Positions 21,155 through 59,939 of a stretch of DNA of 64,000 bases are shown here, piece by piece. How positions within the stretch are numbered: position 1 is the stretch's first letter; every line of letters begins with the position of its first letter. The position numbers were made by a program, and so were the translations under genes. The notes beneath the pieces are model-generated. The model was given only the letters and a program-made list of their open reading frames with translations, searched no databases and was not told the DNA's origin. The stretch is from positions 32,001-96,000 of the IMG/VR virus record IMGVR_UViG_3300024518_000034. One strand, given 5' to 3'. This DNA comes from a virus.

Positions 21155-21157
21155 TAA

Positions 21158-43974: not shown

Positions 43975-46196
43975 GATCTATAAACGTTTTTGGAACTTTT
44001 AATGGGGTTACTGGATATGACCATGTAGTTAGAAATATTGTAGAAAGAATGTATTTCAAGGGTATCGTTGTAGGATTGCATGATTTCAAGGAATGGTCGG
44101 GTACTAAGATACCTACGTCAGTTTTGTTACAGAATATGGTAAAAAGCGCACCGGCTGTGCGCTCTGATATGCTGTTAGCTTTTTGTTTACCAGAGCAGAT
44201 TTATAAAAATAAGAATCTGCACCAAGGAAAAATTATAGCTAATTACACTATGATGGAAACTGATAGGATACCTAGAAATTGGGTAGATTATGGTGCATCA
44301 AGTGATGTAATAATAGTGCCTACTCAATTTAATAAAAAGGCCTGGATAGATAGTGGAGTGAATGAGAACAGATTGGAGGTCGTACCGCTAGGAATTGATG
44401 TAGGTATGTACAATCCAAGCATTCACCCATTGCCATTATATGATGGTGACGAGCTAATAAATGACAAATATAAGTACAGATTCTTAAATATACAGGAAGC
44501 GGTAGATAGAAAGAATTTAGATGGCATATTAGAAAGCTGGATGATAGCTACTAAAGATAGAGACGATTGTTGCTTAATATTGAAGTTATCTTCATACTCA
44601 GAAAATAGATTAGACTTTTTCGGAACTAGAATGGATCGTATTAGAGAGAAGGTAGGAATCAAAAAAGAAGAACACGCGCCTATTTTTATATATTCTAATA
44701 TGTTGTTGGACTCACAAATGCCTTCATTACTTTCAACTTGTACACATTACATATCACTTAGTTTTGGCGAAGGGTGGGATCTAAATATGATCGCAGCAGC
44801 GTCGATGAATAAACAACTGGTAGCGCCAGACAATTCATCTTATAAAGAATATTTGAACGATGAGATTGCATTCATGATTGATACTAAATTAGAGCCAGCA
44901 AAACAAAGCGGACCAACAGCTAGAATCTATCATGGGTCAAACTGGGCAAGACCACAGATGGAATGTGTATTGGATACGTATAAGAAGATTTTTGATGGAG
45001 AAGTGAAGAAAGAAGCAAGAGAGGTGATTGCAAAAGAATATACTTGGGATCACACTGTAGACAATTTAATAAAGACATTAGATAGAAGATTTTATGGCAC
45101 TAAACCTTTTTCTCTACCCAAAGAAGTAGAGAAAAAAAAGACGGGTGTCATGTTAGTTTGCAAAAGTAATGTTGGTTCAGAGAAATGTGGAATATTGGAG
45201 TATAGCAAGTCATTGATAGGTGCATTTCAAAATTCGGAAGAAAAGTTAGATAAAGTGGGACTTATGGGCGGAAATGAGCCGACTTATGTCGATCATATTG
45301 ATAACAATGAAATAGCATTAGTGCATTATCAATATGAGTATCAGTTTCATAGCCCAAGTAGATTGAAGTTTATGTTTAGAGAATTAAAGGCTCGCGGTGT
45401 TAAAACGGTTGTGACTCAACACACTCTAACGAAAGAGGCTGCACCGCACAATTGCGTGATAAGAGATTATGCTGATGCTATCATAGTGCATAGTGATCGT
45501 AGTAAAGAATATGCTAGCGCACAATTAGGATATGATTCAAAAAAGGTTCACAAGGTTATAATGCCATGCAATCCAATCATAGAAGAGTTTGATTCCACTG
45601 TTCCATTGCCGAAAGACAAATTGAAGGTGGGATTTTTTGGATTTTCCTATTATCACAAGGGAATAAACAAACTTATAATTAACTACTATTCACTGAAACA
45701 GCACGAGGCTTTTAAGGATCTAATGTTAGTTATAGTTTCGAACAAGCCTAAGCAGGACCAGGTTGGATATTATGAACAATGTGTAAATATGTTGAACTAT
45801 TTTGGATTGAAGAACAAAGAAGATTACATTTGGATAGATAAGTTTTTACCTGAGGAACAAGCTGTAGGTTATTTGAACCAGTGTGACTGCATTATATTAC
45901 CATATGATGATTATGGTGGAGTAGGTACGAGTGCGGCAATAAGAACAGCTATGAGAGCAGGCAAGCCAGTTTTTGCATCAGACACTTGTTGGTTTTCTGA
46001 CATACCAGAAATAGTAGTACCTAGAATTAATGATGATAATTTCGAAGGAGATTTGAAATCATTGTTGGGTGAGGTTAGGAAAAAAGAGAATTCAGAGGCA
46101 CTTTCTGGTAGAGTTAAAAAGTATGTTGAGAGGAATTCATGGGAAGAGTCGGCAAGGCAGCACAGAGAGATATATCAAACGCTTATAGGTACTTAA
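43971..46196 (+). CDS. tandem double GT4-like glycosyltransferase
   Basis: Module 1: DRKNLD...SLSFGEGWDL. Module 2: GFFGFSYYHKG...ILPY...SAAIRTAMRAGKPVFASD. Confidence 0.85.
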   Translation: MRSINVFGTFNGVTGYDHVVRNIVERMYFKGIVVGLHDFKEWSGTKIPTSVLLQNMVKSAPAVRSDMLLAFCLPEQIYKNKNLHQGKIIANYTMMETDRIPRNWVDYGASSDVIIVPTQFNKKAWIDSGVNENRLEVVPLGIDVGMYNPSIHPLPLYDGDELINDKYKYRFLNIQEAVDRKNLDGILESWMIATKDRDDCCLILKLSSYSENRLDFFGTRMDRIREKVGIKKEEHAPIFIYSNMLLDSQMPSLLSTCTHYISLSFGEGWDLNMIAAASMNKQLVAPDNSSYKEYLNDEIAFMIDTKLEPAKQSGPTARIYHGSNWARPQMECVLDTYKKIFDGEVKKEAREVIAKEYTWDHTVDNLIKTLDRRFYGTKPFSLPKEVEKKKTGVMLVCKSNVGSEKCGILEYSKSLIGAFQNSEEKLDKVGLMGGNEPTYVDHIDNNEIALVHYQYEYQFHSPSRLKFMFRELKARGVKTVVTQHTLTKEAAPHNCVIRDYADAIIVHSDRSKEYASAQLGYDSKKVHKVIMPCNPIIEEFDSTVPLPKDKLKVGFFGFSYYHKGINKLIINYYSLKQHEAFKDLMLVIVSNKPKQDQVGYYEQCVNMLNYFGLKNKEDYIWIDKFLPEEQAVGYLNQCDCIILPYDDYGGVGTSAAIRTAMRAGKPVFASDTCWFSDIPEIVVPRINDDNFEGDLKSLLGEVRKKENSEALSGRVKKYVERNSWEESARQHREIYQTLIGT

Positions 46197-46537
46197 TAGT
46201 AGACAGGCTTGAGGAAAAAGATTTAGATTTTATTGACTACACTGAAGAAGGAGGGTGCCTTTATCTTGGAAAAGATTGGAAAGATGGAGGTCACCAAACA
46301 TATGTAATAGGATTGTCTAGTAAGATGGTGGTGTTTTTAAAAGAATTAATAAGATATAAATTTGGAGTTATAGATTTAAAAAGTGGATCGTGGCATTATT
46401 TCATTTGGTCTAAGAACAAACCTGGAATTATTTGTACTATGTATCATAAGTTTAACGACAACATAGAGGGGGACTCAAGAAGATTTTGGAGAGTGATAAG
46501 ACTGTTAGCGGGAAATTTGAGGGCAAGAGATGAGTGA
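46139..46537 (+). CDS. hypothetical protein, possibly a degenerate LAGLIDADG-fold protein
   Basis: EKDLDFIDYTEEGGCLYL...FLKELIRYKFGVI; start uncertain. Confidence 0.3.
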   Translation: MGRVGKAAQRDISNAYRYLIVDRLEEKDLDFIDYTEEGGCLYLGKDWKDGGHQTYVIGLSSKMVVFLKELIRYKFGVIDLKSGSWHYFIWSKNKPGIICTMYHKFNDNIEGDSRRFWRVIRLLAGNLRARDE

Positions 46538-47444
46538 ACCAAAAATTAGTGTACATATATTGGCGAAGGAAACCACAGAGCTTGGAAACAGACTGTTTGA
46601 GTCATGTGTTCAATCTATATTGGATGCAGACTATGCGTATGAAATTATAATAGTTGATAACGGGTGTGAACCGGGACTTGTTGATGGGCAGTGGGGAGAA
46701 TGCCAAATAACAGTAATAGACGGAACAAACATTGCTGACTTTGCTGCATTAAGAAATCTAGCTTTAGAATACACAGGAAAAGATTGTACACATTTTCATT
46801 GGATTGACACTGATGAGTGCTATCCAAAAGAGACTTTATCAAAGCTAAAGGAAATGGCTAAAAATGATAATATTTCAGCAATAACTACGTGGTTTTGGCA
46901 CTTTATGATTGATCCTACACAATGGCAAGAACAACAGAATAAAACGAACTTCTACAAGCTTGTCCCAGGAATAAAATGGGAATTGCCAGTTCATGAGCAT
47001 CTAGTTGGATATGATAAAACGAAGGTGGCCCATCTGAACGCTTCATATCATCACTATGGATACATTAGGCCACAATGGGTCCAGGCGTTGAAGTGGATAA
47101 AGTATGACGTGTGGCAAAAAGGAAACGCAAATCATTATCGAGAATATTACGACGGAGGTTGGGAAAAGGTGGTAGACTATTATAGCGATGAAAGAACGCC
47201 AGATCAATGTTTAGAAGATCGCAGATCTTATTGCTCTAAATATATAGGGAATCACACGGATGGGTTTGAAAAGAATATAATAGAACCATGGATAGATAGT
47301 GGTAAGACCTGGAATGAGTGGCTTAAGACGATTAACGATTGCACAATGTGGGACGAGTGGGAAGAGAAGAGAAAAGAGTTGGGTTCGTGGAAAGACACAA
47401 TAAGTTGGGCATGTGAACGATATGGATTGAAAGAAAATGAATAA
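46530..47444 (+). CDS. glycosyltransferase family 2
   Basis: IIIVDNG, DFAALRNLAL, WIDTDE (DxD), VHEHL, HHYGY. Confidence 0.88.
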   Translation: MSEPKISVHILAKETTELGNRLFESCVQSILDADYAYEIIIVDNGCEPGLVDGQWGECQITVIDGTNIADFAALRNLALEYTGKDCTHFHWIDTDECYPKETLSKLKEMAKNDNISAITTWFWHFMIDPTQWQEQQNKTNFYKLVPGIKWELPVHEHLVGYDKTKVAHLNASYHHYGYIRPQWVQALKWIKYDVWQKGNANHYREYYDGGWEKVVDYYSDERTPDQCLEDRRSYCSKYIGNHTDGFEKNIIEPWIDSGKTWNEWLKTINDCTMWDEWEEKRKELGSWKDTISWACERYGLKENE

Positions 47445-47628
47445 AGCAACGCTAGAGAAAAACTACAAATTAACCTTGCAACTTACAGATGAAGAGATTC
47501 AGAACTATAAAGTGATATTGCATACATTTAAGACGTTGGGGGACAAGTCAGGTATAGCTGCAAAATATCCTGGTGCCGCGCTTTTAGCAGATGCCATTTT
47601 GTATTCTATTGAAGGAGACAACGAATGA
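47437..47628 (+). CDS. hypothetical protein
   Basis: 63 aa, coupled to both neighbours. Confidence 0.55.
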   Translation: MNKATLEKNYKLTLQLTDEEIQNYKVILHTFKTLGDKSGIAAKYPGAALLADAILYSIEGDNE

Positions 47629-48338
47629 CAGTAGGAATGTTGATTTGCTCTTTTAACGACCTGGAATTAAGTAAAGTAATGTATCCATCTTTAGTTAAGT
47701 CAATGCCTAGTCATATTCCTTATGGAATTGTTGTAGTGGATGGCGGATCAACAGATGGATCGCTAGAGTTTTGGAAATCGAAGGCACCCGTGATACATCC
47801 AGGCGATTCAGATTTGCTAAAGCAGTTAAACGCTGAACCTGGAGATTTGAGACACTTATCTAGATCCTTAAATGTGGGAGGTAAGTATTTAATGGATAGT
47901 GGAGAGTATTCTCACATATTACACCCACATCCTGACATGGAATTTCCCCAAGAGGGGTGGGTAGAGACAATGGTCAATTATCTCAAAAAAGAGCCAAAAA
48001 TAGCTAAATTATCAGCAGATTGGGACCATTTGAGAATGGGAGATAGAGAGGGAAATCAATGCCCGTGGATAATGCCGGTTTCTGTAATCAAAGAAATGAT
48101 TGAAGGTGATGGATATTGGTTCGATCCAGAGTTTAGAGGGATTGGTGGAAGTGAAGACTGGGATCTAAATTGCAGGTTGATCAACAAGGGGTATCGTGTT
48201 ACAATTACATCTGATGCAATAGTAGAGCATGAGGGAATGGGAACTAGGGGTCAAAAGGGAAGAGACACTAACCAGGATGCTCTGTACAATAGAGGTTATT
48301 ATGTGAGCAAGTGGGGAACGCACATGTCCCCAGTATAG
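47625..48338 (+). CDS. glycosyltransferase family 2
   Basis: VVVDGGSTDGS, HPDMEF, GGSEDWDLNCR. Confidence 0.85.
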   Translation: MTVGMLICSFNDLELSKVMYPSLVKSMPSHIPYGIVVVDGGSTDGSLEFWKSKAPVIHPGDSDLLKQLNAEPGDLRHLSRSLNVGGKYLMDSGEYSHILHPHPDMEFPQEGWVETMVNYLKKEPKIAKLSADWDHLRMGDREGNQCPWIMPVSVIKEMIEGDGYWFDPEFRGIGGSEDWDLNCRLINKGYRVTITSDAIVEHEGMGTRGQKGRDTNQDALYNRGYYVSKWGTHMSPV

Positions 48339-48346
48339 GAGATAAA

Positions 48347-48625
48347 ATGACAGTTAAAGAAGCAAAGAAGGCAGTGTACGGATTTATTGAAGACACAGAT
48401 CTTACAACGAGAGATGCGCTTGATTTTACTGAATTAGTAAATGACTTAATTGAGGCTGCAAAAGAAGAACAGAAAAGTTCATACGATGGTGAATTGCAGA
48501 GACTATATCATCTAATATATAATCAAGCTGTAAGTGCAGCAAGAGAAGCATTTGTACAAGGGATGAGGCCTCCTGAGAACAGTGAAGAGGCGAAAGAAGA
48601 GGTTGAGGAAGTTGCAAATGTCTAA
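48347..48625 (+). CDS. hypothetical protein
   Basis: GGAGA RBS before ATG48347. Confidence 0.6.
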   Translation: MTVKEAKKAVYGFIEDTDLTTRDALDFTELVNDLIEAAKEEQKSSYDGELQRLYHLIYNQAVSAAREAFVQGMRPPENSEEAKEEVEEVANV

Positions 48626-49526
48626 ACCAAGAGTTGCTATAGTTATGACCACTATGAATCTTAAGTGGACAAAAATGGCATTACCAGATCTTATCGAGAA
48701 TACTAAGTATCCTTACGATCTAATATTGGTGGACGATTGCACTACAGATGAAGCTAGAAAATTTATCTGGAGTGGATATAAAGAAGTAGAAGACGCTTCG
48801 AAAGCGTTAAATAAGAAAATCGTTTGTTTTTCTACGGGAGAAGAGGACAGGCGAGGAGTTGCAGGATGTTGGAATATTGGGTTGGAAAAAGCGATAGAAG
48901 GTGATTATGAATATTGTTTGATTATGAACAATGACATAGCTTTTCCTGCACCAAAAGATGATAAATGCTGGCTTGAGAGACTAGTAGATTTGGGAGACAG
49001 TAATAAAGATTATGCTTGGCTGTCTCCAGCTTGGCATTGGACAGGTGAACCAGAAGCGGGAGGAATTAAGTGTTTTAAAGCTTCCTGTTGGGATTACACA
49101 GAAAAGCATAAAGATCAAATAGACGATGGAGGAATTGGGTGCTTCTTTATGCTTAGGATGGCTGATGTTAAGTGGATGAAGAATTCAGAAGAAGCTAAAG
49201 GTGAAGAGAATCATCCAGGCTTGTTTGATAAAACATCATATCCAACTAACTGGGAAGAAGTGGATTATTTGATAAGATTGAGGAGAAAAACCTCAATAAA
49301 GGTTAAAAATAAAACAGGAACATTTCACGCTGTAGCATTATATCATAAAGGTAGTGGTACAACGGGGTCGCCCGAATGGCATGGAAAAGTTAAAGTAGAT
49401 TACCAAACGGGACATGTCAACTTTTGTAAGAAATGGAATCTTCCTCATCCAAATAGTGGGTTTGGAGTGCATAATGCAATATATGAATATGTTAATAAAG
49501 ATGGCAAATGGGAAAAGGCAACATAG
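48618..49526 (+). CDS. glycosyltransferase family 2
   Basis: LILVDDCTTD, GCWNIG, IMNNDI, WEEVDYLIR. Confidence 0.85.
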   Translation: MSKPRVAIVMTTMNLKWTKMALPDLIENTKYPYDLILVDDCTTDEARKFIWSGYKEVEDASKALNKKIVCFSTGEEDRRGVAGCWNIGLEKAIEGDYEYCLIMNNDIAFPAPKDDKCWLERLVDLGDSNKDYAWLSPAWHWTGEPEAGGIKCFKASCWDYTEKHKDQIDDGGIGCFFMLRMADVKWMKNSEEAKGEENHPGLFDKTSYPTNWEEVDYLIRLRRKTSIKVKNKTGTFHAVALYHKGSGTTGSPEWHGKVKVDYQTGHVNFCKKWNLPHPNSGFGVHNAIYEYVNKDGKWEKAT

Positions 49527-49534
49527 GAGGTGAA

Positions 49535-50539
49535 ATGATTTTAGCAGAATACATATGGATAGATGGAACAACGCCAACAGCGAGGTTAAGATCAAAAACG
49601 AAAGTGTTAACTTTGGAAGACGAAGGAATTTGTCCAGATTGGAACTTTGATGGGTCGTCTACAAATCAGGCTGATGGAGACGATTCAGATGTTAAGCTTA
49701 AAGTTGTAAGAACGGTAAAAGATCCATTTAGAAAAGGTACGAATTACCTTGTTTTGTGTGAATGCACAACTCATGATGGCAAGCCTGTAGAAAGTAATGC
49801 AAGAGCTAAATTGAGAGCGCTGCTGGAGAGTGGTGTTAGAAAAAAGCATGAGCCGTGGGTTGGCTTTGAACAAGAATATACATTAATTGATGAAATATCT
49901 GGGAAACCAAAGGGATTCCCAGAGAGGGGATATCCATCACCGCAAGGGCCATATTATTGTGGAACAAATATACCAGGAAGGGTGGTAATGGAGAGGCATC
50001 TGCAGGCATGCATTGAGGCTGGGTTGAAAATTACGGGTACAAATGCTGAAGTCATGGTTGGGCAGTGGGAATATCAGATTGGCCATGGAGATCCGCTAGA
50101 GATTAGTGATCATCTGTGGATAGCTAGATATCTCTTGGAGAGGATAGCAGAGGAAGAGGGGGTAGGCGTAAGTTTGGAAAATAAACCAGTAAAAGGCGAT
50201 TGGAACGGATCAGGCGCACATTTAAACATATCTATTAAATCAACAAGAGAGAAAAACGGATTAGAGGCTATTGACAAAGTTATATCGAAGTTGAAAAAGT
50301 GTCACAGGGAACATATATTGGAGTATGGGCATGGGTTGGGAGAGAGACTTACTGGTGAACACGAGACTTGTCATATTGGTGAGTTTAAGTGGGGTGTAGC
50401 AGATAGAACTGCATCCATTAGAATTCCTTATAAAGTTTATAAGGATAAGAGGGGGTATTTTGAAGATAGAAGGCCAGGGGCCAATATTGATCCATATCGA
50501 GCATGTAGAAGGATGCTACAAACAATAGCAAGTGAATAA
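49535..50539 (+). CDS. glnII: glutamine synthetase, type II
   Basis: AEYIWIDG, WNFDGSST, GFEQEY, PQGPYYC, NAEVMVGQWEYQ, DWNGSGAH, RLTGEHET, RTASIRIP, GYFEDRRP. Confidence 0.95.
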   Translation: MILAEYIWIDGTTPTARLRSKTKVLTLEDEGICPDWNFDGSSTNQADGDDSDVKLKVVRTVKDPFRKGTNYLVLCECTTHDGKPVESNARAKLRALLESGVRKKHEPWVGFEQEYTLIDEISGKPKGFPERGYPSPQGPYYCGTNIPGRVVMERHLQACIEAGLKITGTNAEVMVGQWEYQIGHGDPLEISDHLWIARYLLERIAEEEGVGVSLENKPVKGDWNGSGAHLNISIKSTREKNGLEAIDKVISKLKKCHREHILEYGHGLGERLTGEHETCHIGEFKWGVADRTASIRIPYKVYKDKRGYFEDRRPGANIDPYRACRRMLQTIASE

Positions 50540-51026
50540 AAAATGTACAAAGTGTAATTCAAGTAAAGATATTTCTAATTTTTATAAAGATAAGCACAAT
50601 AAGGATGGGTATAATTATAGATGTAAATTTTGTGTGAATCAAGGAAATACGTGCAGTGAATGCGGTAAAAGTATTACAAAAAGATCAAAATATTGCGATA
50701 GGTGTTGTAAAATTGGAGTGAAAAATCCTGACTGGAAGGGCGGCAGAGTTGTAAGAGGGTCTGGCTATGTTAGGGTTAAGATGCGAGATCATCCGAATGC
50801 GCACGTTGATGGCTATGTATTTGAACACGTAATGATAATGTCTAAAATGATAGGAAGACCATTGTTAAAAAAAGAAACAGTACATCATAAAAATGGAATT
50901 AAAAATGATAATAGACTAGAAAATCTTGAATTGTGGAGTTCAGATCATCCTTCTGGTCAAAGAGTAAAAGATTTAGTAAAGTGGGCTAAAGAGATACTTA
51001 GAAAATATGGTGATAGATGCGACTAG
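50532..51026 (+). mobile_element. free-standing HNH homing endonuclease with zinc fingers
   Basis: Several CxxC pairs; GYVFEHVMIM...VHHKNGIKNDNRLENLELW. Confidence 0.88.
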
Positions 51027-51580
51027 AACTTGGACCAGGAAACGATCCGTCACCGGGTTTTGATTACTATGTAGACATTGCTCCTCTTGATCATGTAACT
51101 CATGTGCTTGATTTTGCCAAACAAGGACTGCAAGGTTTTGAGGATAACAGTCTTGATGAAATCTTAGCTATACATTTTCTTGAGCATTTACCACAAGGCA
51201 AGCAAAGTTATTTTTTTGCTGAATGTAAGAGAAAACTAAAAGTGGGCGGCAAGCTTGTAGTACATGTACCAAACTTAGAAACGATATTTAGAGCATATGA
51301 GTGTTTTAAAAATAATAACCAATATGATGCGCTTATGACAGAGCTTCAATCGATGTTATTTGGTGTACACAATGGTGATGTTTATTCTGTGCATAAAATA
51401 GCGTATAATTGGCAAATATTAGAGAAAATGTTTCACAATCATGGGTATGAGCCTGTGAGAAACCTAACAGGAATAAAAAAGGACAGACACACTGTTGGTT
51501 GGGAGTGGGTCACAAAGTATATAAGAGATGCTGGTGGAGTCACACCAGAATTTAGTTTAATAGTAGAAGGGAAAAAATAA
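51017..51580 (+). CDS. class I SAM-dependent methyltransferase (type 11-like)
   Basis: RLELGPG, FEDNSLDEILAIHFLEHL, LKVGGKLVVHVP. Confidence 0.85.
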   Translation: MRLELGPGNDPSPGFDYYVDIAPLDHVTHVLDFAKQGLQGFEDNSLDEILAIHFLEHLPQGKQSYFFAECKRKLKVGGKLVVHVPNLETIFRAYECFKNNNQYDALMTELQSMLFGVHNGDVYSVHKIAYNWQILEKMFHNHGYEPVRNLTGIKKDRHTVGWEWVTKYIRDAGGVTPEFSLIVEGKK

Positions 51581-52560
51581 TGAAATCACCGGGAAAAAAG
51601 TTTAAAGAATTAATCGAAAAAGATGGATATATTTTTACAGGTGGAGTATACGATGCTATATCTGCAAAAGTAGCAGCGATGGCTGGAATGAAGGCTTTGT
51701 ATTTGTCAGGATATTCTCAGTCATTGGGGTTGCTTGGAAGATCAGATATGGAATTTGTACAGAGACATCAGGCTGTTGACAATTCGAGAAGAGTAGCAGA
51801 GTCACTAGAAGATGGCGGATTTGATGTCCCAGTAATCGCAGATGCAGATACAGGCTATGGGTCAGTTAATCAGGTTCAATACACTGTGAGGTCGTTTGAG
51901 CGTGCTGGTGTTGCAGGTGTACATCTAGAGGATCAAACGATTCCTAAGAGGTGCGGGCATATTGCAGGAAAGACAGTGCTTCCTATGGAGGAAAGCGTTG
52001 GAAAGATTGCAGCAGCAGTTGATGCAAAAACGGACAAGGATTTCATTATTATAGCAAGAACTGATGCATTGGGTGCAGCCGGTGGATCTATGGAAGATGC
52101 AGTTAAGAGAGCTATCGCGTACCACGACGCAGGTGCTGACATGGTATGGTGCGAGTTTGGCAGTGCATCTAGAGAGTTAGCTAAAGAGTTTGCATATCTT
52201 ACAACATCGTTAAGACCAAAAATGGGTTTGGCTTTTAACTATTCTTCGTCATTTAAGTGGCACGAGCAAAAAGAGCCTATGGTCGCTGAAGAATTGCACG
52301 AGATGGGCTATACATTTATGTTTGTAACATTGTTTGGTATTCATGCTGCAACGCTAAGCTTGTATAATCATTTTGAAAATATGTATGTAGACGGACCAGT
52401 GGCTCAGTGGGATTTAGAAGTGCTTAAGAAAAATCATCCAACGGAGAGTCATCACGTCATGGGAGATACTGCAACATATCAAGCAGTAGAGCAGAAGTTT
52501 CTGCCAACTGTGGCAACTGAAAGAATTGAAGCATCAGAAGGATATAAGGAAGAAAAATAA
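51580..52560 (+). CDS. aceA: isocitrate lyase (short, haloarchaeal-type architecture)
   Basis: YLSGY, VIADADTGYG, HLEDQTIPKRCGHIAGK, IIARTDA, VWCE, AFNYSSSFKW, FVTLFGIH, HPTESHH. Confidence 0.85.
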   Translation: MKSPGKKFKELIEKDGYIFTGGVYDAISAKVAAMAGMKALYLSGYSQSLGLLGRSDMEFVQRHQAVDNSRRVAESLEDGGFDVPVIADADTGYGSVNQVQYTVRSFERAGVAGVHLEDQTIPKRCGHIAGKTVLPMEESVGKIAAAVDAKTDKDFIIIARTDALGAAGGSMEDAVKRAIAYHDAGADMVWCEFGSASRELAKEFAYLTTSLRPKMGLAFNYSSSFKWHEQKEPMVAEELHEMGYTFMFVTLFGIHAATLSLYNHFENMYVDGPVAQWDLEVLKKNHPTESHHVMGDTATYQAVEQKFLPTVATERIEASEGYKEEK

Positions 52561-52561
52561 T

Positions 52562-53551
52562 ATGCATCCAAGTGAAGCGTTAGTTGAAAGAGGGACTAAG
52601 GATATACCAACAATGTCGCCAGTTGAACATTTCTGCGGGACGGAAAAGTTTGTAAAGAAAGCGATGAAAATTCAGCAAGAGAGAAATGGTGATTTTGACA
52701 TTACTATCGATCTGGAAGATGGTGCGCCAAAAGGTAAAGAGAAAGACAACCTTGATATGGCTATTGCTATGATCAAGTCAGACGACAATAAGTTTAATAG
52801 AATAGGTGTACGTATCCATGACCCAGGAAACGATTGGTGGTTTAAAGAGGCTAATTTATTGAGAGAAGAAGTTGGAGATAGATTAGCTTATATAACTTTG
52901 CCAAAAGTTCTAGGTGCGGAAGATGTAATGAAAATGAGAACAACGCTTTTTAGGTCAAACCTTTCTCTGCATGTAATCATTGAAACGCTTGAGGCGTTTC
53001 AGAATTTAGATGACATTTTAAAAGTACACAATGTAGATTTAGTAGATTTTGGCCTTATGGACTTTACATCTGCCCACCAGGGAATTCTTTCAAGAGATGT
53101 AATGAAATCGCCGCAGCAGTTTACAAACCCATTGATGCAATATTATAAGTCACAGTTTGTGGCAAAAGCCTTGGCAGCAGGTAAAGTGCCAGCACACAAT
53201 GTAACAGTGGATGTTGGTAAAAAGGACTTAGCATATAAAGACGCAGCAACAGCAAGAAACGATTTCGGCTTCTTGCGTATGTGGTCCGTCTTTCCTGCTC
53301 AGATAGATGAAATTATGAGAGGCATGGCGTCAGCATATAATCTCTTGCAGTTGAAGGCGTATTCTGATATCCTATGTAAGGCTCAAGAAGCGGACTGGGG
53401 TCCAATCGGTTATATGGGTAAGATGGAAGACAGAGCAACGTATAGACTTTATTGGCAGACTCTGAAGAGAGCAAGAAGTGTAACTGGAGTTGAAATTCCA
53501 GCAGAAGCAGAAGAAAGATTTTTTAAGGACGTTAAGCTAGTGGGAGCATAA
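52562..53551 (+). CDS. HpcH/HpaI aldolase-citrate lyase beta (CitE/malyl-CoA lyase/malate synthase fold) protein
   Basis: TIDLEDGA, IGVRIHD, ITLPK, HVIIET, FGLMDF, MWSVFPAQI, EDRATYR. Confidence 0.85.
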   Translation: MHPSEALVERGTKDIPTMSPVEHFCGTEKFVKKAMKIQQERNGDFDITIDLEDGAPKGKEKDNLDMAIAMIKSDDNKFNRIGVRIHDPGNDWWFKEANLLREEVGDRLAYITLPKVLGAEDVMKMRTTLFRSNLSLHVIIETLEAFQNLDDILKVHNVDLVDFGLMDFTSAHQGILSRDVMKSPQQFTNPLMQYYKSQFVAKALAAGKVPAHNVTVDVGKKDLAYKDAATARNDFGFLRMWSVFPAQIDEIMRGMASAYNLLQLKAYSDILCKAQEADWGPIGYMGKMEDRATYRLYWQTLKRARSVTGVEIPAEAEERFFKDVKLVGA

Positions 53552-53554
53552 AAA

Positions 53555-53905
53555 ATGTATTTAAACAAGTATCAAGAAGAAGCGACAAGAACAGCTAGGA
53601 ATTTTGAAGACGTTGAAATGGGGCCAACCAAGTTGGCCCTAGCTAATTGGGCGCTAGGTTTAGCAGGTGAAGCAGGAGAGGCGGCAGAGCTTGTAAAAAA
53701 GCATGTATTTCACGGACATGAGTTAGATTTGGCTGAAGTTAGAAAAGAGCTAGGTGATGTGTTGTGGTATATAGCTAATCTGGCTGAAACTGTGGGACTG
53801 GAAATGGAAGATATAGCTAAGGCTAATATTGAAAAGTTGAAAGCTAGATATGGTGATGGGTTTTCAGAAGAGAAATCTCAAAATAGAGTAGAATATAGCA
53901 ACTAA
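53555..53905 (+). CDS. MazG-like nucleotide pyrophosphohydrolase
   Basis: LGLAGEAGEAAELVKK...KELGDVLWY...NIEKLKARY. Confidence 0.9.
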   Translation: MYLNKYQEEATRTARNFEDVEMGPTKLALANWALGLAGEAGEAAELVKKHVFHGHELDLAEVRKELGDVLWYIANLAETVGLEMEDIAKANIEKLKARYGDGFSEEKSQNRVEYSN

Positions 53906-54816
53906 TGAACATATTAATGCTTTTTGCTTTTACTGATAAACCAGCCTCTCCAGCTTGGTATATCAGAAGGTCTTTTCTTCGTATGGGTCATAGTATAACT
54001 ACGATGGGCCATAATTGTGAGATTAATACTAAAGGTAAAAATCCTTATCAAACTCAAAACATTCACAGTATAATAAAAAAGAAGAATATTGATCTAGTTT
54101 TGGAAATAGACTCTGGAGGTTTTGACATAAGTTGGAACCCTGGACCTTTGAAGAATCAATATAAGAATGTTAAATTTGTATACTGGGGATCAGATACACA
54201 CTTGGGAACTGTTGCAGGAGTGTATGGGAACAAGAGAAAAAGATACGATTTGGCATTTTTCGCACAGAAGAAGTTTATTGATGATCAGCATATGTCTCAC
54301 AGGTATTGGTTACCACACGCATGTGATCCAGAATTTCACAATCCAGACATAAAAGACAAGAAGAAGATTCACGATGTAACATTTATTGGACATAAGCATC
54401 CTACGGTACATGGTAAAAGAATTACCTTGCTTCAAATGATTAAAAATGATAGAATAAACATTAATGACAGGTGTTATATTTATACAGATAAGATGGGTGC
54501 TGAGTTCGTTAAAAGCAGAATTGTGTTGAATTGTTCATTGAATGGCGACTTAAATATGAGGTTTTTTGAAGCCATGTGTTCTGGTGCATGTTTGCTGACT
54601 GATTGGTCAGATCATGGAGGTTTTACAGAACAAGGATTTAAAAGAGGGGAACATTATTGTGCTTACGATAGTAATCGTCATGCGGTGACAGCGATAAGAG
54701 CATTGCTTAACGACCATGAGAAAAGAAAGAGAATAGCTAAGGCTGGACAAAAGTATGTTTTGGAAAATCATACCTATGATAATAGGGCGAAAAAAATATT
54801 AAGTTTTGTAGAATGA
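53905..54816 (+). CDS. CgeB-like glycosyltransferase (GT-B)
   Basis: WLPHACDP, SRIVLN...DLNMRFFEAMCSG...HTYDNRAKKIL. Confidence 0.88.
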   Translation: MNILMLFAFTDKPASPAWYIRRSFLRMGHSITTMGHNCEINTKGKNPYQTQNIHSIIKKKNIDLVLEIDSGGFDISWNPGPLKNQYKNVKFVYWGSDTHLGTVAGVYGNKRKRYDLAFFAQKKFIDDQHMSHRYWLPHACDPEFHNPDIKDKKKIHDVTFIGHKHPTVHGKRITLLQMIKNDRININDRCYIYTDKMGAEFVKSRIVLNCSLNGDLNMRFFEAMCSGACLLTDWSDHGGFTEQGFKRGEHYCAYDSNRHAVTAIRALLNDHEKRKRIAKAGQKYVLENHTYDNRAKKILSFVE

Positions 54817-55295
54817 GCAGCACTGTTGATTATTTTGGTATTGTTTACGGAAGGAATCAAACAATGAATTGGAAATATTACGAACTAGTTGAAGGCGTGC
54901 ATAATAAGTTTTGGATGATAGCTAGACATGAAGATGGAAAAGGATTCACGGCGCGATGGGGGAAAATTGGAACAACTGGTCAAATGCAAATGAAGAATTT
55001 TTCAAGCGTAAGTAGGACTATAAAAGCCTTTAATGACAAAGTGTGGGAGAAAACTAAAAAGAGGTATGTATTAAAACATCATGGGGATGATTTCTTGACA
55101 GCGGAAGGTGCTAATGCGTATAGGCCTGGTCGCCCAATTACGGAAACTATGAAGTACTTCAGAAGAAGAGATCCAATCGTACATGATCCAAATAAGACAA
55201 TCACACCGGCACCAAAGAAGAAAAAAGCTAAAGGTAAGAAGACTGCGATAAAGCCAAAGTTTAAAATAAGAATAAGGAAAAGAAAAGCAGAATGA
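54813..55295 (+). CDS. WGR domain protein with Lys-rich tail
   Basis: HNKFWMI...ARWGKIGTTGQ...EKTKKRY. Confidence 0.8.
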   Translation: MSSTVDYFGIVYGRNQTMNWKYYELVEGVHNKFWMIARHEDGKGFTARWGKIGTTGQMQMKNFSSVSRTIKAFNDKVWEKTKKRYVLKHHGDDFLTAEGANAYRPGRPITETMKYFRRRDPIVHDPNKTITPAPKKKKAKGKKTAIKPKFKIRIRKRKAE

Positions 55296-56281
55296 AGATA
55301 GCAATGTTGACAACATGGGATGTCCGATGTGGTATCGCACAAAACTCAAAGTTTTTAGTAGATGCATTAATTGAAGCTGGACATGAGGTGGGATTATTTG
55401 TTCAATTTAGTAATGATATTGAAAAGAAAGAAAGAGTGCCTCCTTCCTGCATCCATAGAAGAGATAAGAATGGCGAGTATTGGTCATATTTTAAATTATG
55501 GCGATGTTGGAGTTGGTATGGGAGATCAGATAAAGTAGAATTTGATGTAGAACCAATTAAGGAATTTAAGCCAGACGTGATTCACGTTCAATATGAGTCA
55601 TTCCTTTGGCATGAATCATACTTGCCGCAACTAAAAGGTATAGCACCGATAGTAATAACCCACCATTCGTCTTGTACGGGTCCAGGTTGTCCTGTAAATG
55701 AAGCACAGGCTAATGTTGTACACGATGAAGAGTTTCCCGCTTTACCTAATAGGAGAATAATCCCTATGGGCATTCCAGACACCTTTGATTTTGTTAATTT
55801 CGAAGACACAGAACCAGTAATGGGTTCGTTTGGATTGCACAGAAATAATGATGACTATTGTAAGGAGGCCATGACTTTGGTCAGTAAAGCGTTGTCAGCA
55901 CCTATTCATTATAGAACACATTATGGCAATTCAAAATGGGTTCCAACAGAAGAACTGGTAAAAATCTTACAGAAGAATAGAATGTTGGCTTTGATTTATC
56001 CAAAAACAGGCGCTGTGGTGTCGAGTAGTGCAGCATGTGTAGCTTTGGGGGCAGGACTTCCTGTATTATGTTCAAACACTAGGTGGTTTAAACATTTAAG
56101 TAAATATGTACATCTTATTGATACTGTAGAAGAGATGGCTCACATTATAGGTCATTATATGGTAGAGGAAGATTTTTGGAATATTGCAAGAGATAGGGCT
56201 ACGCAGGCCAGAGAAGAAAGAGGCTGGAGTAAGATTGCTAAACAACACGAGAATCTATATAAGGAGATTTTAAATGGATGA
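55292..56281 (+). CDS. glycosyltransferase, GT4-like
   Basis: WDVRCGIA, PDVIHVQYE, SSAACVALGAGLPVLCSN, WSKIAKQHENLY. Confidence 0.75.
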   Translation: MKIAMLTTWDVRCGIAQNSKFLVDALIEAGHEVGLFVQFSNDIEKKERVPPSCIHRRDKNGEYWSYFKLWRCWSWYGRSDKVEFDVEPIKEFKPDVIHVQYESFLWHESYLPQLKGIAPIVITHHSSCTGPGCPVNEAQANVVHDEEFPALPNRRIIPMGIPDTFDFVNFEDTEPVMGSFGLHRNNDDYCKEAMTLVSKALSAPIHYRTHYGNSKWVPTEELVKILQKNRMLALIYPKTGAVVSSSAACVALGAGLPVLCSNTRWFKHLSKYVHLIDTVEEMAHIIGHYMVEEDFWNIARDRATQAREERGWSKIAKQHENLYKEILNG

Positions 56282-56699
56282 ACAAGAGAAGATGCTTTCG
56301 GAAGATATATCCGTAGGCAAGATGTGCCCATTTTTGATGGGAACGGCAGAAGACTTTCAATCAAATCAGGCTATATGTGTGGGAGATAAATGTGCCTTGC
56401 ATCAAACTATGCATGAAAGTTATGTAGAGACAGATGACAATGAGGAACCAGTTGTAAAAGATGGACAACCAGTGGTTAAAACTAAAGAAATAAAAGGATG
56501 TTCGTTTGCGTTGTCTTCTAGATTAGAATATATGTCTGTAATGACATTGTCTGACTCAAACAGAACAGGGCACTTTGTAGCCCAGGGACTTTCAAAACTT
56601 ATGCAGGCAATGACGCCTGTGGGAATGAATAAACCAAAAGGTGGGATCGTTTTACCAAGAGGTAATATAGCACCAAGTCAAATGGGTCCAGCAAGATAA
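56274..56699 (+). CDS. hypothetical protein
   Basis: KMCPF...CVGDKCAL...C Cys cluster. Confidence 0.6.
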   Translation: MDEQEKMLSEDISVGKMCPFLMGTAEDFQSNQAICVGDKCALHQTMHESYVETDDNEEPVVKDGQPVVKTKEIKGCSFALSSRLEYMSVMTLSDSNRTGHFVAQGLSKLMQAMTPVGMNKPKGGIVLPRGNIAPSQMGPAR

Positions 56700-56703
56700 A
56701 TGA

Positions 56704-57333
56704 ATGAAGAAGAATCAAACCAAGAGTAGATTAGAGAAGATAGACAGATCTGTATTTCTTTTACAAAACGGTACTATACCGGAAAGGGAGTCATCATCTA
56801 GAGATCTTCTTGAAATATTTCACCCATTGGTAATCTCTGCTGCTCAAAGGATCGCTAACAGATTTCCTCATAATTTGCAGGAAATAATACCTGTGGTGCA
56901 AAACAAGCTTATTGTGATAATTATTGAGTTTCGTACTCCGAGAAAGGATACGAGAGGAAATGGTCGTCCCAAGGGTGGCTGGGCACCTAATATTAATGTG
57001 TATTTAAGGCAAAATCTCTACTATTTTAGTATGCTTGAAATAAGGAAAGATATTAGTGGGTCTAAAAATAGTAATCAAGACTCAACTATAGTGATACAAG
57101 ACATTTGTGATTATGAGACGCAAGGTACGGTTGAGTATGATTACGATGTAGCATCGGAAATGCTAGGAATGATTGAATTTGAATATGGAGCGAAAATAAG
57201 GGATGTGGTAATGCTTAAGTACCTTTTTGGGTTTAAATATGCAGAAATCAGTTGGATTACAGATATGTCTAATATACAAATAAGAAATAGTCTTAGTAGA
57301 GTTAAGAACAAATTTCAATCAATAAAGCTATAG
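56704..57333 (+). CDS. phage RNA polymerase sigma factor (sigma70/ECF-like)
   Basis: Region 2-like LLEIFHPLVISAAQR; region 4 HTH RDVVMLKYLFGFKYAEISWITDMSNIQIRNSLSRVKNK. Confidence 0.7.
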   Translation: MKKNQTKSRLEKIDRSVFLLQNGTIPERESSSRDLLEIFHPLVISAAQRIANRFPHNLQEIIPVVQNKLIVIIIEFRTPRKDTRGNGRPKGGWAPNINVYLRQNLYYFSMLEIRKDISGSKNSNQDSTIVIQDICDYETQGTVEYDYDVASEMLGMIEFEYGAKIRDVVMLKYLFGFKYAEISWITDMSNIQIRNSLSRVKNKFQSIKL

Positions 57334-57338
57334 TAATT

Positions 57339-57515
57339 ATGAGGTTATCATCAAGTTTAAAAGGTTATTGCGTGTCTTGTAACGATGAAAAGATATTCGT
57401 TAAGAAGAGAATGCAAACGATGGGTGAGCGTAAAGTAATAAAAGGTAAGTGTGATTGTGGTATGTTAATGATAAAAATAGTAGATGGGCCTGGGGGAAAG
57501 AATGCCAACTTATAG
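57339..57515 (+). CDS. small zinc-ribbon protein (DUF5679-like)
   Basis: Read manually: MRLSSSLKGYCVSC...KGKCDCG; 58 aa. Confidence 0.6.
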   Translation: MRLSSSLKGYCVSCNDEKIFVKKRMQTMGERKVIKGKCDCGMLMIKIVDGPGGKNANL

Positions 57516-58047
57516 ATTTCAGTGTGATTCGTGTGAAGGTTATTATGAAGAAGTATTTCATGGATATGAAGAAAGAGGACCATTTGAGTGCAAATGTGGT
57601 GGTTCTTTGGAAAGAACTATGAAGGGGTGTATTCCAGGTCTTAAGTTTGTTGGTAAAGGTTGGAATGACAAGGATCGTAAAATAGATGAGCATATGGACT
57701 GGGTCGGTCAGGTTATGGCAGAGCCCGTGTGTGCAAGCGAAATAGATGAAGGTAAGGACATGTTGAGAGAGAGGGAGCAGGAGAAGGGGTATCCTGAAGG
57801 TTATTTGACAGGTGACAGACCGCAGGAAACTAAATTGGTAGAAGCAAAAACAGGACAGCAGGTTGATATAAGTAAAATGGTTGACGCGGGCCTAGCTACT
57901 CAGGGTGCTGTGGAAAAGAAAATAGCAGATAGTGTAAAGGCTGGAGATTTGGTAGAGGTAAAGCAGACTAAGCTCCAGGGGGCAGAAAAGATTAAAAAGA
58001 GAGCGAAAGCTCAAGCTGCAGAAAGAAGAAGGACTACGGGGTCATGA
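57502..58047 (+). CDS. FmdB-like zinc-ribbon protein
   Basis: MPTYRFQCDSC...ECKCGG; GGAAAG upstream of ATG57502. Confidence 0.75.
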   Translation: MPTYRFQCDSCEGYYEEVFHGYEERGPFECKCGGSLERTMKGCIPGLKFVGKGWNDKDRKIDEHMDWVGQVMAEPVCASEIDEGKDMLREREQEKGYPEGYLTGDRPQETKLVEAKTGQQVDISKMVDAGLATQGAVEKKIADSVKAGDLVEVKQTKLQGAEKIKKRAKAQAAERRRTTGS

Positions 58048-58307
58048 AAATATTTACAAGAGAAGAATATGAAAAATATGATTTGAAGCATGTACGAGAT
58101 AAATTAGAAGGAACGTGGTCGGACAAGTTTCAAATATGGGATCCGCCTTTGGGATATAGAAAAACGTATGGGGAATATCCAGTTATTAGGTGGGACGAGA
58201 AGAAAAATCTTTATGAGAAAGTTAGAAACTATATTAGAGCGAGAACGTACCGTTTTAAAAGATTAAAAAGATATCTTAAAAAAGTGATGCAAGGGAGAAG
58301 AGAATAA
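58044..58307 (+). CDS. hypothetical protein
   Basis: 87 aa, ATGA-coupled. Confidence 0.55.
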   Translation: MKIFTREEYEKYDLKHVRDKLEGTWSDKFQIWDPPLGYRKTYGEYPVIRWDEKKNLYEKVRNYIRARTYRFKRLKRYLKKVMQGRRE

Positions 58308-58477
58308 TGATAGCATGTTTCGGATTATGCCCAGTCGATTGGGTAATTGCAGGATTGCTGGCTGTAGGGGTCGGTGGCACAACATTGGCAAACTATTTAA
58401 AAGAAAAAAGATGTGGGAAAAAGGAATGTTGCACACATAAAGATGGAGAACATACAAAAGAAGAAGAAACTACTTAA
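58307..58477 (+). CDS. small membrane protein
   Basis: Read manually: TAATG coupling; MIACFGLCPVDWVIAGLLAVGVGG... Confidence 0.55.
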   Translation: MIACFGLCPVDWVIAGLLAVGVGGTTLANYLKEKRCGKKECCTHKDGEHTKEEETT

Positions 58478-59939
58478 ATATAGGCTACATCAATTAACAG
58501 ACGAAGAACTGTGTAGTGATAGTATGGTTAGAAGTGCTGCTGATGAGGAAAATTATCCTGGGTTTGAATTTAGACCGCTAAGAAAAAAGGATTATTTTAG
58601 TCCAGAGAAAGAGATGGAAGTGCCTATGGCTCCTATGGATTTATATAATGAATTAGGAGAAGCGATAACAGAAGAAGAAAGACAGGTAGAACAAGGAGGA
58701 TTTCCTTCTATACCTGAAAAAGAAAGAAACCTTCCTCAAATGAGGGAGGAAAGAAGAGATCTGGAAGATCCAGAAGCTGCAATGCGTGTGTTAGGAGTAT
58801 ATTCTGAAAGATTTGAGGAGATTGCTGATAAGGTTTTTCAAATAAAGCGAGGATTGAAATCTATCACTGACGAGATTGAAAAAAAGAAAGAAGAACATAA
58901 AGCTAATGTTGAAATTGTAAGAACGTTAGCGATACGTGATAAAATATATCACACAATGAACACGGCAATAATACCTATATTTAAAACACATAGGAGAATA
59001 ATATGGGCAGTCCAGCAAGAAATCAAAAGGACAACTAAAGAATCTAGTTGGTATACAACACCTGAAGAGATTGAAGAGTTAAACGCTAAATATCCAAGAA
59101 GAGAACCTTTCAGATATGAAACTACGTCAAAAGGCGTTCGTTTCTTGAGAATGAGAGAGTTTAAGGATAGGTGGGTAGATGATAGAGAAGAAGAAAATAA
59201 AATCTATCAAAACATGGGCAATGCTGTAGCTTCTGCGTGGCAATCCTATGAGAGAGCGCTGAGACTTAAGGGTGAATTTTTGATAAGATATGCACAGCAG
59301 GATAATCTCTTAATGGCCCTAGAGAGTCTCGCAAATGATATGGAAGTTTTGGCGCAAGCAGCTTCGGAATTGGCAGAGCGAGATAGACAGACGGAAATGG
59401 CACTTGGGGCAGAATTGGAGATGCCTAAGGCAGCAAAATTAATTTCCCCAGATAACTTTTCTAAGATAGCTGTTGAAACTTTAGATGAGTTTTTGCAGCC
59501 GCCAATGATGTCAGATTTAGACGAAGAGGAACAAGGAATTCCTCCAGCCCAGCCAATAATGGATGATGGGACTCTAGAGCCTATTCCAGTAGACGATGAT
59601 GAATTTTTAAGACTTAAGTTTCCTGAAAATGATAGGATGCCTGAGTCGATGTGGGCAAAAATTCAATTTGCTGGAGCTAAGAATCTTTTAATAAGTATAA
59701 CTTATACAAAGATCACCCCACCTGAAGAAGGAATGACTAAGTCGTATGTCGTTGAACCATATTCGTTTAGATTGAAGCGACCAAGGCGCACAGGAGGCGG
59801 CTCACAGTATTATTTCTTTGCATATGATACAGAGGATCACCATATTAAAGGTTTTATATACAGGCGTATTCAGAGTATAGAAATATTGCCAGAGAGTTTT
59901 GATCCTAGATGGGAGGTTGAATTTCATTGGGCAGATTAG
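58413..59939 (+). CDS. coiled-coil protein with C-terminal WYL-like domain
   Basis: ITYTK...YVVEPYSFR...FFAYD...IKGFIYRRIQSIEIL; true start possibly ATG58524. Confidence 0.65.
   Translation: MGKRNVAHIKMENIQKKKKLLKYRLHQLTDEELCSDSMVRSAADEENYPGFEFRPLRKKDYFSPEKEMEVPMAPMDLYNELGEAITEEERQVEQGGFPSIPEKERNLPQMREERRDLEDPEAAMRVLGVYSERFEEIADKVFQIKRGLKSITDEIEKKKEEHKANVEIVRTLAIRDKIYHTMNTAIIPIFKTHRRIIWAVQQEIKRTTKESSWYTTPEEIEELNAKYPRREPFRYETTSKGVRFLRMREFKDRWVDDREEENKIYQNMGNAVASAWQSYERALRLKGEFLIRYAQQDNLLMALESLANDMEVLAQAASELAERDRQTEMALGAELEMPKAAKLISPDNFSKIAVETLDEFLQPPMMSDLDEEEQGIPPAQPIMDDGTLEPIPVDDDEFLRLKFPENDRMPESMWAKIQFAGAKNLLISITYTKITPPEEGMTKSYVVEPYSFRLKRPRRTGGGSQYYFFAYDTEDHHIKGFIYRRIQSIEILPESFDPRWEVEFHWAD

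Follow-up and report, generated by a model that had tools for sequence, protein, structure and literature searches.

A conserved two-gene lyase module in a large phage genome, a candidate miniature glyoxylate bypass

A stretch of 64,000 nucleotides from a viral genome carries, side by side, a gene for an isocitrate lyase (ICL)-type enzyme and a gene for a lyase of the CitE/HpcH fold. This stretch, referred to as the window, corresponds to positions 32,001 to 96,000 of the 192,308-bp IMG/VR virus record IMGVR_UViG_3300024518_000034 (G000:C1:32001-96000), which is estimated to be ~90% complete. The two gene products are designated P0001 and P0002. Their genes are real, intact, and phage-borne, and both are under strong purifying selection. 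It appears, at a probability that we place slightly above even, that this two-gene phage module acts as a miniature glyoxylate bypass. An original prediction made from the window had described a glyoxylate-shunt-like module at this position; the observation as such is confirmed, and the interpretation that was attached to it is partly supported.

51580 to 52560, plus strand: P0001, a minimal 326-aa isocitrate-lyase-type lyase (PF13714, PF00463, KRCGH)
52562 to 53551, plus strand: P0002, a 329-aa CitE/HpcH-fold lyase of the 3QQW/3R4I family (PF03328; 3QQW match)

In at least five phage lineages, ranging from 32 to 50% in GC content, ICL and CitE-like genes are direct neighbours or are separated by a single gene. 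The gene orders at these loci, with the identities of the encoded proteins, are as follows.

This phage: ICL, CitE, adjacent
L100, L007, and L101: ICL, an 81-aa open reading frame (ORF), CitE; 91-95% protein identity (the contig of a further relative, L006, ends just past ICL)
Contig of P0125: epimerase, methyltransferase, 193-aa ORF, ThyX, ICL, CitE; 73% / 55% identity
L002: ThyX and, further along, MazG, 73-aa ORF, ICL, 248-aa ORF, CitE; 52% / 52% identity, 32% GC
L008, the same as L013/L017 (a 395-kb IMG/VR megaphage): ICL, RmlD-like gene, CitE; 46% / 46% identity, 50% GC

The genes that the contexts in the other lineages share with the window are ICL and CitE only, plus MazG in L002. The phage ICLs form one clade (SH-aLRT 96). 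Likewise, four phage CitE proteins form a clade whose branching order matches that of the ICL tree (support 95), and six phage-type CitE proteins form one clade in the best tree, with a weak support of 64. A CitE-like gene was found near none of the cellular short ICLs (0/80 loci). These data make it most likely that the pair arose in phages, or entered them a single time, and was retained thereafter. What the original prediction had seen as ICL-type and CitE-type genes side by side in a phage is a real, conserved, and selected pair.

Genes for MazG and for a methyltransferase often occur with the pair. MazG accompanies it in this phage, in L007, and in L002, and the MazG encoded here is 47% identical to that of L002. 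The methyltransferase gene located just upstream of ICL is kept in L100, L007, and L006. The methyltransferase itself has generic class I matches only, and its atlas neighbours are mostly viral methyltransferase clusters. In the megaphage (L008:5108-7987 and L013/L017, IMGVR_UViG_3300032132_000001), the gene between the two pair genes encodes an RmlD-like NAD(P)-dependent reductase (PF04321, 189 bits), and a TROVE/Ro60 gene lies ~2 kb beyond the pair in L008.

No pair of this kind was seen in GenBank phages. A megablast search of the 46-58 kb region against GenBank phages returned no match. A tblastn search of the ICL against the same phages returned host-like fragments and the canonical ICL of phage C48C1 only, with no partner gene. 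In the complete genome deposited for phage C48C1 (L184:5911-7152; OQ984149.1, of the cyanophage family Kyanoviridae), the ICL is of the AceA type, is 54% identical to E. coli AceA, and bears the annotation 'hypothetical protein'; its neighbourhood lacks both a malate synthase and a CitE partner. Two IMG/VR contigs (L014 and L015) carry a canonical ICL alone, with 60% identity to AceA. Pattern scans of IMG/VR found the pair only twice, here and in a contig of 395 kb; such short exact patterns can miss relatives. PHROGs contains no family for either lyase.

Cellular-type metabolic genes in a metagenome-assembled viral contig could reflect a host fragment or a chimeric assembly at the module borders. 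Several observations make this explanation extremely improbable. In two seawater runs that may be the source of the record, a single 37-kb contig with an even depth of ~23x spans positions 44000-60000. The stretch was reproduced in a seawater run that is not flagged as source (X3): all 30 bins of the 44-60 kb region were covered with no joints, only three low-depth differences were seen, all near the contig end, and one contig bridges the genes for a family 2 glycosyltransferase (GT2), glutamine synthetase (GS), and an HNH endonuclease that precede the methyltransferase gene. Furthermore, four contigs of relatives from other samples, with ~84% nucleotide identity, are collinear in blastn across the methyltransferase, ICL, CitE, and MazG genes. 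Composition is uniform along the window, and the module genes show a third-position GC content (GC3) of 0.31-0.35 and a purine bias like those of DnaE and RecA. Phage replication genes and TerL lie on either side of the module. The check for chimerism across the module thus shows the stretch not to be chimeric. A comparison of this phage with L100 gave a ratio of nonsynonymous to synonymous substitutions (dN/dS) of 0.094 for ICL at a dS of 0.65 and of 0.035 for the CitE-like gene at a dS of 1.06. The ratio for the methyltransferase was 0.19.

P0001 carries the TIM barrel of the ICL/phosphoenolpyruvate (PEP) mutase superfamily, as it matches PF13714 with 143 bits and PF00463 with 106 bits. Its lyase loop reads KRCGH at residues 123-127, and K123, C125, G126, and H127 are invariant relative to both AceA and PrpB. 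The C-terminal half of the protein separates these two families. NYSSSFKW (220-227) and TLFGIH (250-255) of P0001 correspond to NCSPSFNW and TLAGIH in AceA of E. coli, whereas NITEFGxTPLF and PLSAFRA occupy those positions in PrpB and PrpB-like proteins and are absent from P0001. The motifs N-x-S-x-S-F-x-W and T-L-x-G-x-H are presumably those that bind succinate in ICL. P0001 does not have the full AceA architecture, as it is missing the ~45-aa N-terminal extension and two insertions. In a tree, the P0001 family groups with AceA across the split from PrpB with a support of 100. The AF2 model of P0001 (pLDDT 84.8) found true ICLs as its top Foldseek matches (E 1e-21), with a TM-score on the query (TMq) of 0.79-0.84 compared to 0.69-0.75 for methylisocitrate lyases and other small superfamily members. 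Taken from sequence and structure model together, P0001 is a minimal isocitrate-lyase-type lyase, neither a PrpB nor a PEP mutase, and its activity is predicted.

Curated family models score P0001 low throughout. It falls below the ICL equivalog cut-offs (TIGR01346, 123.8 vs 275.9; NF011645, 129 vs 562). Its best NCBIfam match is PrpB TIGR02317, at 179.8 bits vs a cut-off of 354.4, and phmmer alignments to most PrpB structures stop near residue 192-205. PrpB was rejected as an assignment given the absent C-terminal motifs, the score under the cut-off, and a structural match (TMq 0.69-0.74) poorer than that to ICLs. The score against PEP mutase TIGR02320 was likewise under the cut-off (112 vs 319.6). 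A PEP mutase opening a phosphonate-glycan pathway was also considered and dropped because the loop is of the lyase type (KRCGH) and ICL motifs are present. Outside phages, the short-ICL family is large in cellular metagenomes, where its members (~45-50% identity) include those of Methylomirabilota and Binatia. One cellular homolog adjoins malate synthase G and a LysR regulator. Among 30 sampled cellular loci, the neighbour was a LysR regulator in 12 and a sigma-54 activator in 10.

P0002 was placed in the HpcH/CitE TIM-barrel family by a PF03328 match of 30 bits vs a cut-off of 25. In phmmer searches it matched 3QQW with 282 bits and 3R4I with 221 bits, near full length, and malyl-coenzyme A (malyl-CoA) lyases with an E-value of 1e-5 only. 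3QQW (Reut_B4148) and 3R4I (Bxe_B2899) belong to its own family, with a Foldseek TM on the target of 0.83-0.92. These two are cellular structural-genomics entries known as 'putative citrate lyases' with no function assigned, whereas P0002 resides in a phage; they are listed merely as 'CitE-like' in a study of malyl-CoA lyases (PMC3832036). Past its own family, the nearest Foldseek matches of P0002 are the malyl-, beta-methylmalyl-, and citramalyl-CoA lyases of Roseiflexus, Chloroflexus, Rhodobacter, and Methylobacterium (TMq 0.68-0.71), followed by CitE of M. tuberculosis (Mtb) and (S)-citramalyl-CoA lyase (TMq 0.62-0.65). Its identity to solved malyl-CoA lyases is 18-20% only, and its scores stay below equivalog cut-offs (NF041626, 32 vs 500 bits; RipC/Ccl, 31 vs 375 bits).

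The catalytic residues are in place. With the residue numbering of PMC3832036, D62, E64, D65, R96, E153, and D179 of P0002 align with Asp42, Glu44, Asp45, Arg76, Glu141, and Asp168 of the R. sphaeroides malyl-CoA lyase, and in the lid D302 corresponds to Asp318 of the Chloroflexus enzyme. All seven residues, mapped via HMMER alignments, occur without exception across the aligned family, and they are common to malyl-CoA lyases, CitE, and malate synthases. At the lid position, P0002 has the Asp of lyases and synthases, where enzymes of the thioesterase branch have Glu. In the AF2 model (pLDDT 87.2), a lid beta-hairpin stands immediately before D302. In other words, P0002 has the same CitE-like fold, seven catalytic residues, and lid beta-hairpin with Asp as the malyl-CoA lyases of Chloroflexus and Rhodobacter (PMC3832036). 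On these alignments and the model, P0002 is a CitE-superfamily acyl-CoA lyase that is predicted to be malyl-CoA-lyase-like.

The cellular relatives of P0002 give clues about its substrate. Context was examined at 80 cellular loci of the CitE-like family, and the upstream neighbour could be read in 60 and the downstream neighbour in 57. Upstream, mesaconyl-CoA hydratase (15/60) and a second HpcH paralog (11/60) were found; downstream, 8/57 had a gene of the ICL/PEP-mutase family. Acyl-CoA dehydrogenases, CoA-transferase, and thioesterases also occur nearby. In Cupriavidus necator H16, the CitE-like gene ends an operon with acyl-CoA synthetase, a citrate-synthase-like protein, acyl-CoA dehydrogenase, CoA-transferase, and mesaconyl-CoA hydratase. 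Relatives of 3QQW/3R4I thus sit in acyl-CoA operons and not beside a P0001-type ICL, whereas P0002 does sit beside one. To judge from these acyl-CoA gene neighbourhoods, the 3QQW/3R4I family would be made up of acyl-CoA C-C lyases that act on dicarboxyl-CoA esters of the C4/C5 type. Of its three candidate reactions, two (malyl-CoA and beta-methylmalyl-CoA lyase) would use glyoxylate, the product of ICL. The paper on C5-dicarboxylate catabolism in C. necator defined its Ccl genes by homology to a RipC-type enzyme, and so the substrate of the 3QQW family cannot be read from it. A row of three genes, encoding a mesaconyl-CoA-hydratase-like protein, a 3QQW-family CitE-like lyase, and a PrpB-like lyase, is present in Methylophaga thiooxydans (L039:4926-7913) and is conserved in methylotrophs (L023, L040, L043, L076, L086, and L090).

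A module for C3/C5 acids would also fit part of these data. P0001 would then act on 2-methylisocitrate or another 2-alkylmalate, and P0002 on citramalyl- or beta-methylmalyl-CoA, feeding pyruvate, propionyl-CoA, or acetyl-CoA to the host. PrpB is the top NCBIfam match of P0001 (180 bits), mesaconyl-CoA hydratase is the commonest cellular neighbour of the CitE-like family, the family adjoins a PrpB-like gene in Methylophaga and Methylophilaceae, and the C. necator operon resembles C5-dicarboxylate catabolism. However, P0001 has AceA-type motifs, has none of the PrpB C-terminal motifs, and has better structural matches to ICLs. The PrpB-like partner in methylotrophs belongs to another subfamily, which aligns over the first ~150-205 residues only at 37-41% identity. 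Nor does any phage locus have a hydratase, CoA-transferase, or methylcitrate-cycle gene with the pair. We regard this alternative as unlikely.

How would the two enzymes work together? In the bypass, P0001 would split isocitrate into succinate and glyoxylate, and P0002 would condense glyoxylate with acetyl-CoA to (S)-malyl-CoA. Malate would be released by P0002 itself or by a host thioesterase. The pair would thus form a compact glyoxylate bypass of less than 2 kb in infected cells, one that skips the two CO2-releasing steps of the tricarboxylic acid (TCA) cycle and supplies C4 acids for biosynthesis during infection. What we infer in this scheme are the substrates, the direction of the second reaction, the release of malate, and the physiological benefit. 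The bypass is the best available reading because glyoxylate is common to both enzyme types. PF01274, the model for canonical malate synthases A and G, has no match on P0002 or anywhere in the 192-kb record; in the absence of a canonical malate synthase from the record, P0002 is the sole candidate for the second step. The record likewise has no class-V aminotransferase, 4HBT thioesterase, or ThyX.

Several points weigh against the bypass. Both P0001 and P0002 are under every curated NCBIfam equivalog cut-off, and the P0001 family has Tyr (SGY) in place of the conserved Trp of the ICL SGW motif. The ICL assignment of P0001 is built on motifs and fold, and not on context or experiment. Cellular short ICLs mostly stand alone beside regulators, with a malate synthase nearby in only 1/80 metagenome loci, so that motifs are the basis for their ICL role as well. 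For P0002, the commonest cellular context, with mesaconyl-CoA hydratase, favours cleavage of beta-methylmalyl- or citramalyl-CoA over malate synthesis. Furthermore, the phage has no thioesterase of the 4HBT family, so a P0002 that acted only as a lyase would need host help to pull the condensation.

Known systems provide a frame for the second step. R. sphaeroides uses two paralogs, Mcl1 and Mcl2, a malyl-CoA lyase and a malyl-CoA thioesterase, which together make up an 'apparent malate synthase'. P0002 stands on the separate 3QQW/3R4I branch, and the phage has no second paralog of the thioesterase type. The glyoxylate cycle of Haloferax volcanii consists of an ICL and a CitE-fold malate synthase, so there is a precedent for its second step being run by an enzyme of the CitE superfamily. 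The original prediction had named the haloarchaeal malate synthase and malyl-CoA lyases among CitE-fold enzymes. Of these two, malyl-CoA lyases are the nearer to P0002 in residue alignment and Foldseek searches; phmmer did not match P0002 to any H. volcanii malate synthase chain at E<=1, and these chains are absent among the Foldseek matches listed. The malyl-CoA lyases of R. sphaeroides and Chloroflexus condense glyoxylate and acetyl-CoA (PMC3832036), and for P0002 that reaction is predicted. One extension of the bypass appears possible though doubtful: P0002 may be a new class of small malate synthase, derived from (methyl)malyl-CoA-lyase stock, that both condenses and releases malate. Together with the ICL it would form a self-sufficient shunt of less than 2 kb that was assembled and is inherited in large phages.

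Glyoxylate could also serve another end. The ICL, together with a P0002 that cleaves malyl- or beta-methylmalyl-CoA of the host, would supply glyoxylate that a host aminotransferase turns into glycine for purines and methylene-tetrahydrofolate (THF), that is, for C1 units and nucleotides. The malyl-CoA lyase reaction is reversible (PMC3832036), ThyX lies beside the pair in L002 and in the contig of P0125, and MazG does so here, in L007, and in L002. However, this phage encodes no class-V aminotransferase, no ThyX, and no enzyme that makes malyl-CoA, and the adjacency of ThyX and MazG may merely reflect clustered early or auxiliary genes. A supply of glycine is thus rather improbable as the purpose of the pair.

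The two lyase genes are embedded in a run of six intact plus-strand ORFs at 49.5-53.9 kb that abut or overlap one another, with glycosyltransferase genes on both sides, five upstream (one of them sub-threshold in Pfam) and two downstream. The features other than the two lyase genes are listed below; family assignments were made with Pfam, NCBIfam, and PHROGs.

42745-43974, 43971-46196, 46530-47444, and 47625-48338: other upstream glycosyltransferases (Pfam; for 47625-48338 the match is below the cut-off)
48582 to 49526, plus strand: GT2-family glycosyltransferase, left flank (PF00535, 26.3 bits vs a cut-off of 23.3), collinear with relatives to 49520
49521 to 51022, plus strand: GS+HNH cassette of 1,502 bp, present here and missing in the closest relatives
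49535 to 50539, plus strand: type II glutamine synthetase, GlnII-like (PF03951, PF00120, NF041605)
50532 to 51026, plus strand: HNH endonuclease, homing-type (PF13392, 30.9 bits; phrog_20891, 138 bits)
51017 to 51580, plus strand: class I S-adenosylmethionine (SAM)-dependent methyltransferase (PF08241, 27.6 bits)
53555 to 53905, plus strand: MazG-like nucleotide pyrophosphohydrolase (PF03819, 44.5 bits; phrog_229, 144.5 bits)
53905 to 54816, plus strand: GT1-like glycosyltransferase, right flank (PF13524, 85 bits)
55292-56281: second downstream glycosyltransferase

All six genes named in the original prediction (GS, HNH, methyltransferase, ICL, CitE-fold lyase, and MazG) are present in this abutting or overlapping arrangement, and Pfam located its glycosyltransferase flanks on both sides. 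Two starts were chosen over longer ORFs. The longest GS ORF begins at 49508, but the ATG at 49535 is preceded by an AGGAGG site and was preferred. For the CitE-like gene, a TTG ORF begins at 52526, whereas the ATG at 52562 is one base past the ICL stop and matches the start in a 95%-identical relative. A promoter scan of the locus found no enrichment relative to shuffled sequence, and no internal terminator was convincing.

Do the six genes form one module, as originally proposed? They are not inherited as a single unit: the GS+HNH portion (49521-51022) is missing in four otherwise collinear contigs of the closest relatives. In L100, L007, L006, and L101 (~84% nucleotide identity), the blastn alignment runs to window position 49520 and resumes at 51023, with ~14 bp in between. 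In L100, the GT2 gene abuts the methyltransferase gene and GS+HNH is gone. Since the two genes are missing from four near relatives, they are not part of the lyase module; GS+HNH is a strain-level cassette in which GS lies beside a homing-type endonuclease. GS would be a separate auxiliary gene that was gained or lost along with the HNH endonuclease. The enzyme is of type II: it gave 347 bits against maize GS1a (2D3A), the type II (GSII) motifs occur as identical or near-identical blocks, and PF03951 (39.6 bits) and PF00120 (73.4 bits) are both past their cut-offs. NF041605 (GlnII) was matched over 4-330/333 with 425 bits, which is under the cut-off of 500 and indicates a divergent GSII. The best relatives of this GS are taxonomically scattered and reach ~58% identity at most. 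To judge from its sequence, GS is probably active. The relatives also differ in the spacing of the lyase genes. In them, ICL and CitE are separated by an additional ORF of 81 aa (~217 bp; L100:9759-10004), vs a one-base junction at 52558-52562 here, and this difference is a second small indel inside the module.

The glycosyltransferase flanks raise a further alternative, in which the pair supplies an organic-acid block or an acyl-CoA donor (malyl, succinyl, or glyoxylate-derived) for the polysaccharide made by the glycosyltransferases. Here and in L100, the pair is surrounded by about eight glycosyltransferase genes in a run, the RmlD-like reductase separates the pair genes in L008, and an epimerase and a methyltransferase precede the pair in the contig of P0125. 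However, the genes adjoining the pair include no acyltransferase or pyruvyl/succinyl-transferase, the pair occurs in L002 without sugar genes, and both enzymes come from central-metabolism families. Such glycan tailoring is very unlikely. The related idea that the module feeds the adjacent glycosyltransferases is not supported either, as the link is not conserved and the pair lies beside ThyX, MazG, methyltransferase, or epimerase in other lineages. With regard to the bypass, the glycosyltransferases would be neighbours and not demonstrated partners.

The wider context of the module is viral. Primase, DnaB, DnaE, RecA, and SbcCD are encoded upstream of the glycosyltransferase genes, and a sigma-like gene, adenosine phosphosulfate (APS) kinase, and TerL lie downstream of the module, in keeping with the otherwise viral genome that had been described from DnaE and TerL. 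Scans with Pfam Terminase_6N and with a sheath model gave no match, nor did Pfam for the TerL ORF (62168-64000+), which was then confirmed by tblastn matches to annotated terminases in 327 phage records. The APS kinase gene (59927-60451; CysC; PF01583, 178 bits) is intact, and only a few genes separate it from TerL. Positions 54813-55295, between two glycosyltransferase genes, encode a WGR-domain protein of 160 aa (PF05406, 54 bits). A second HNH endonuclease gene (38347-38874) is located between recA and a gene for an Mre11-like phosphoesterase, so the replication module is interspersed with free-standing HNH genes. Positions 7650-23938 hold a series of very large ORFs (1005, 1806, 1063, 538, 564, and 361 aa); five of them, all but the 1806-aa ORF at 10667-16087, were scanned and had no PHROG match at E<=1e-5. 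The two strands are very strongly asymmetric along the whole window: sizeable genes in the surveyed regions are all on the plus strand and their coding strands are 57-65% purine, and GC skew (+0.19 to +0.35) and AT skew are positive in every 2-kb bin of the window (1-64000).

The original prediction held that few tailed phages have both shunt steps side by side. The concept is in fact published, and it is the non-canonical enzyme pair that is new. aceA and aceB were reported from ocean viromes (Hurwitz 2013, PMC4053976), and an aceBA operon was described in a complete 178.6-kb marine virus of 37.5% GC, TARA_ERS478052_N000008 (Nishimura et al. 2017, PMC5332604). Like the phage studied here, TARA_ERS478052_N000008 has a large marine tailed-phage-like genome with polysaccharide genes and both shunt steps side by side, and by analogy its canonical aceBA may serve as a precedent for the bypass. 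The enzymes and gene contexts are different. In TARA_ERS478052_N000008, aceB precedes aceA, and the products are malate synthase A (502 aa, PF01274) and a host-like AceA (411 aa, TIGR01346 3e-178), whereas this phage has an ICL of 326 aa below equivalog cut-offs and a CitE-family lyase of 329 aa without PF01274. A 2025 preprint on huge phages gives ICL in 98, 'malate synthase' in 22 (20 adjacent to ICL and 2 one gene apart), and GS in 247 (bioRxiv 10.1101/2025.02.27.640493). This adjacency is the pattern seen here. In the preprint, 'malate synthase' was called by structure and may or may not be the CitE-like family of P0002. At 192 kb, this phage falls just under the 200-kb threshold of that study. 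Thus, a phage glyoxylate shunt and phage GS are already published, and the specific non-canonical, co-inherited enzyme pair is new.

The GS+HNH indel is a clean case in which near-identical phage strains differ in an auxiliary metabolic gene, one that lies beside a homing-type endonuclease. If the pair does act as a bypass, it would give a testable function to the ~323-aa 'short ICLs' that are common in soil bacteria and to the 3QQW/3R4I CitE-like proteins, and it would offer a very small two-gene shunt for metabolic engineering. Should P0002 be a small malate synthase, this would be the first functional assignment for the 3QQW/3R4I family. If the pair does what is proposed, large marine phages would have gained a glyoxylate bypass at least two times, once as host-like aceBA and once as a compact non-orthologous pair that strong selection has maintained in lineages of 32-50% GC, which would argue that rerouting of the TCA cycle around its CO2-releasing steps is a recurrent need in marine infection.

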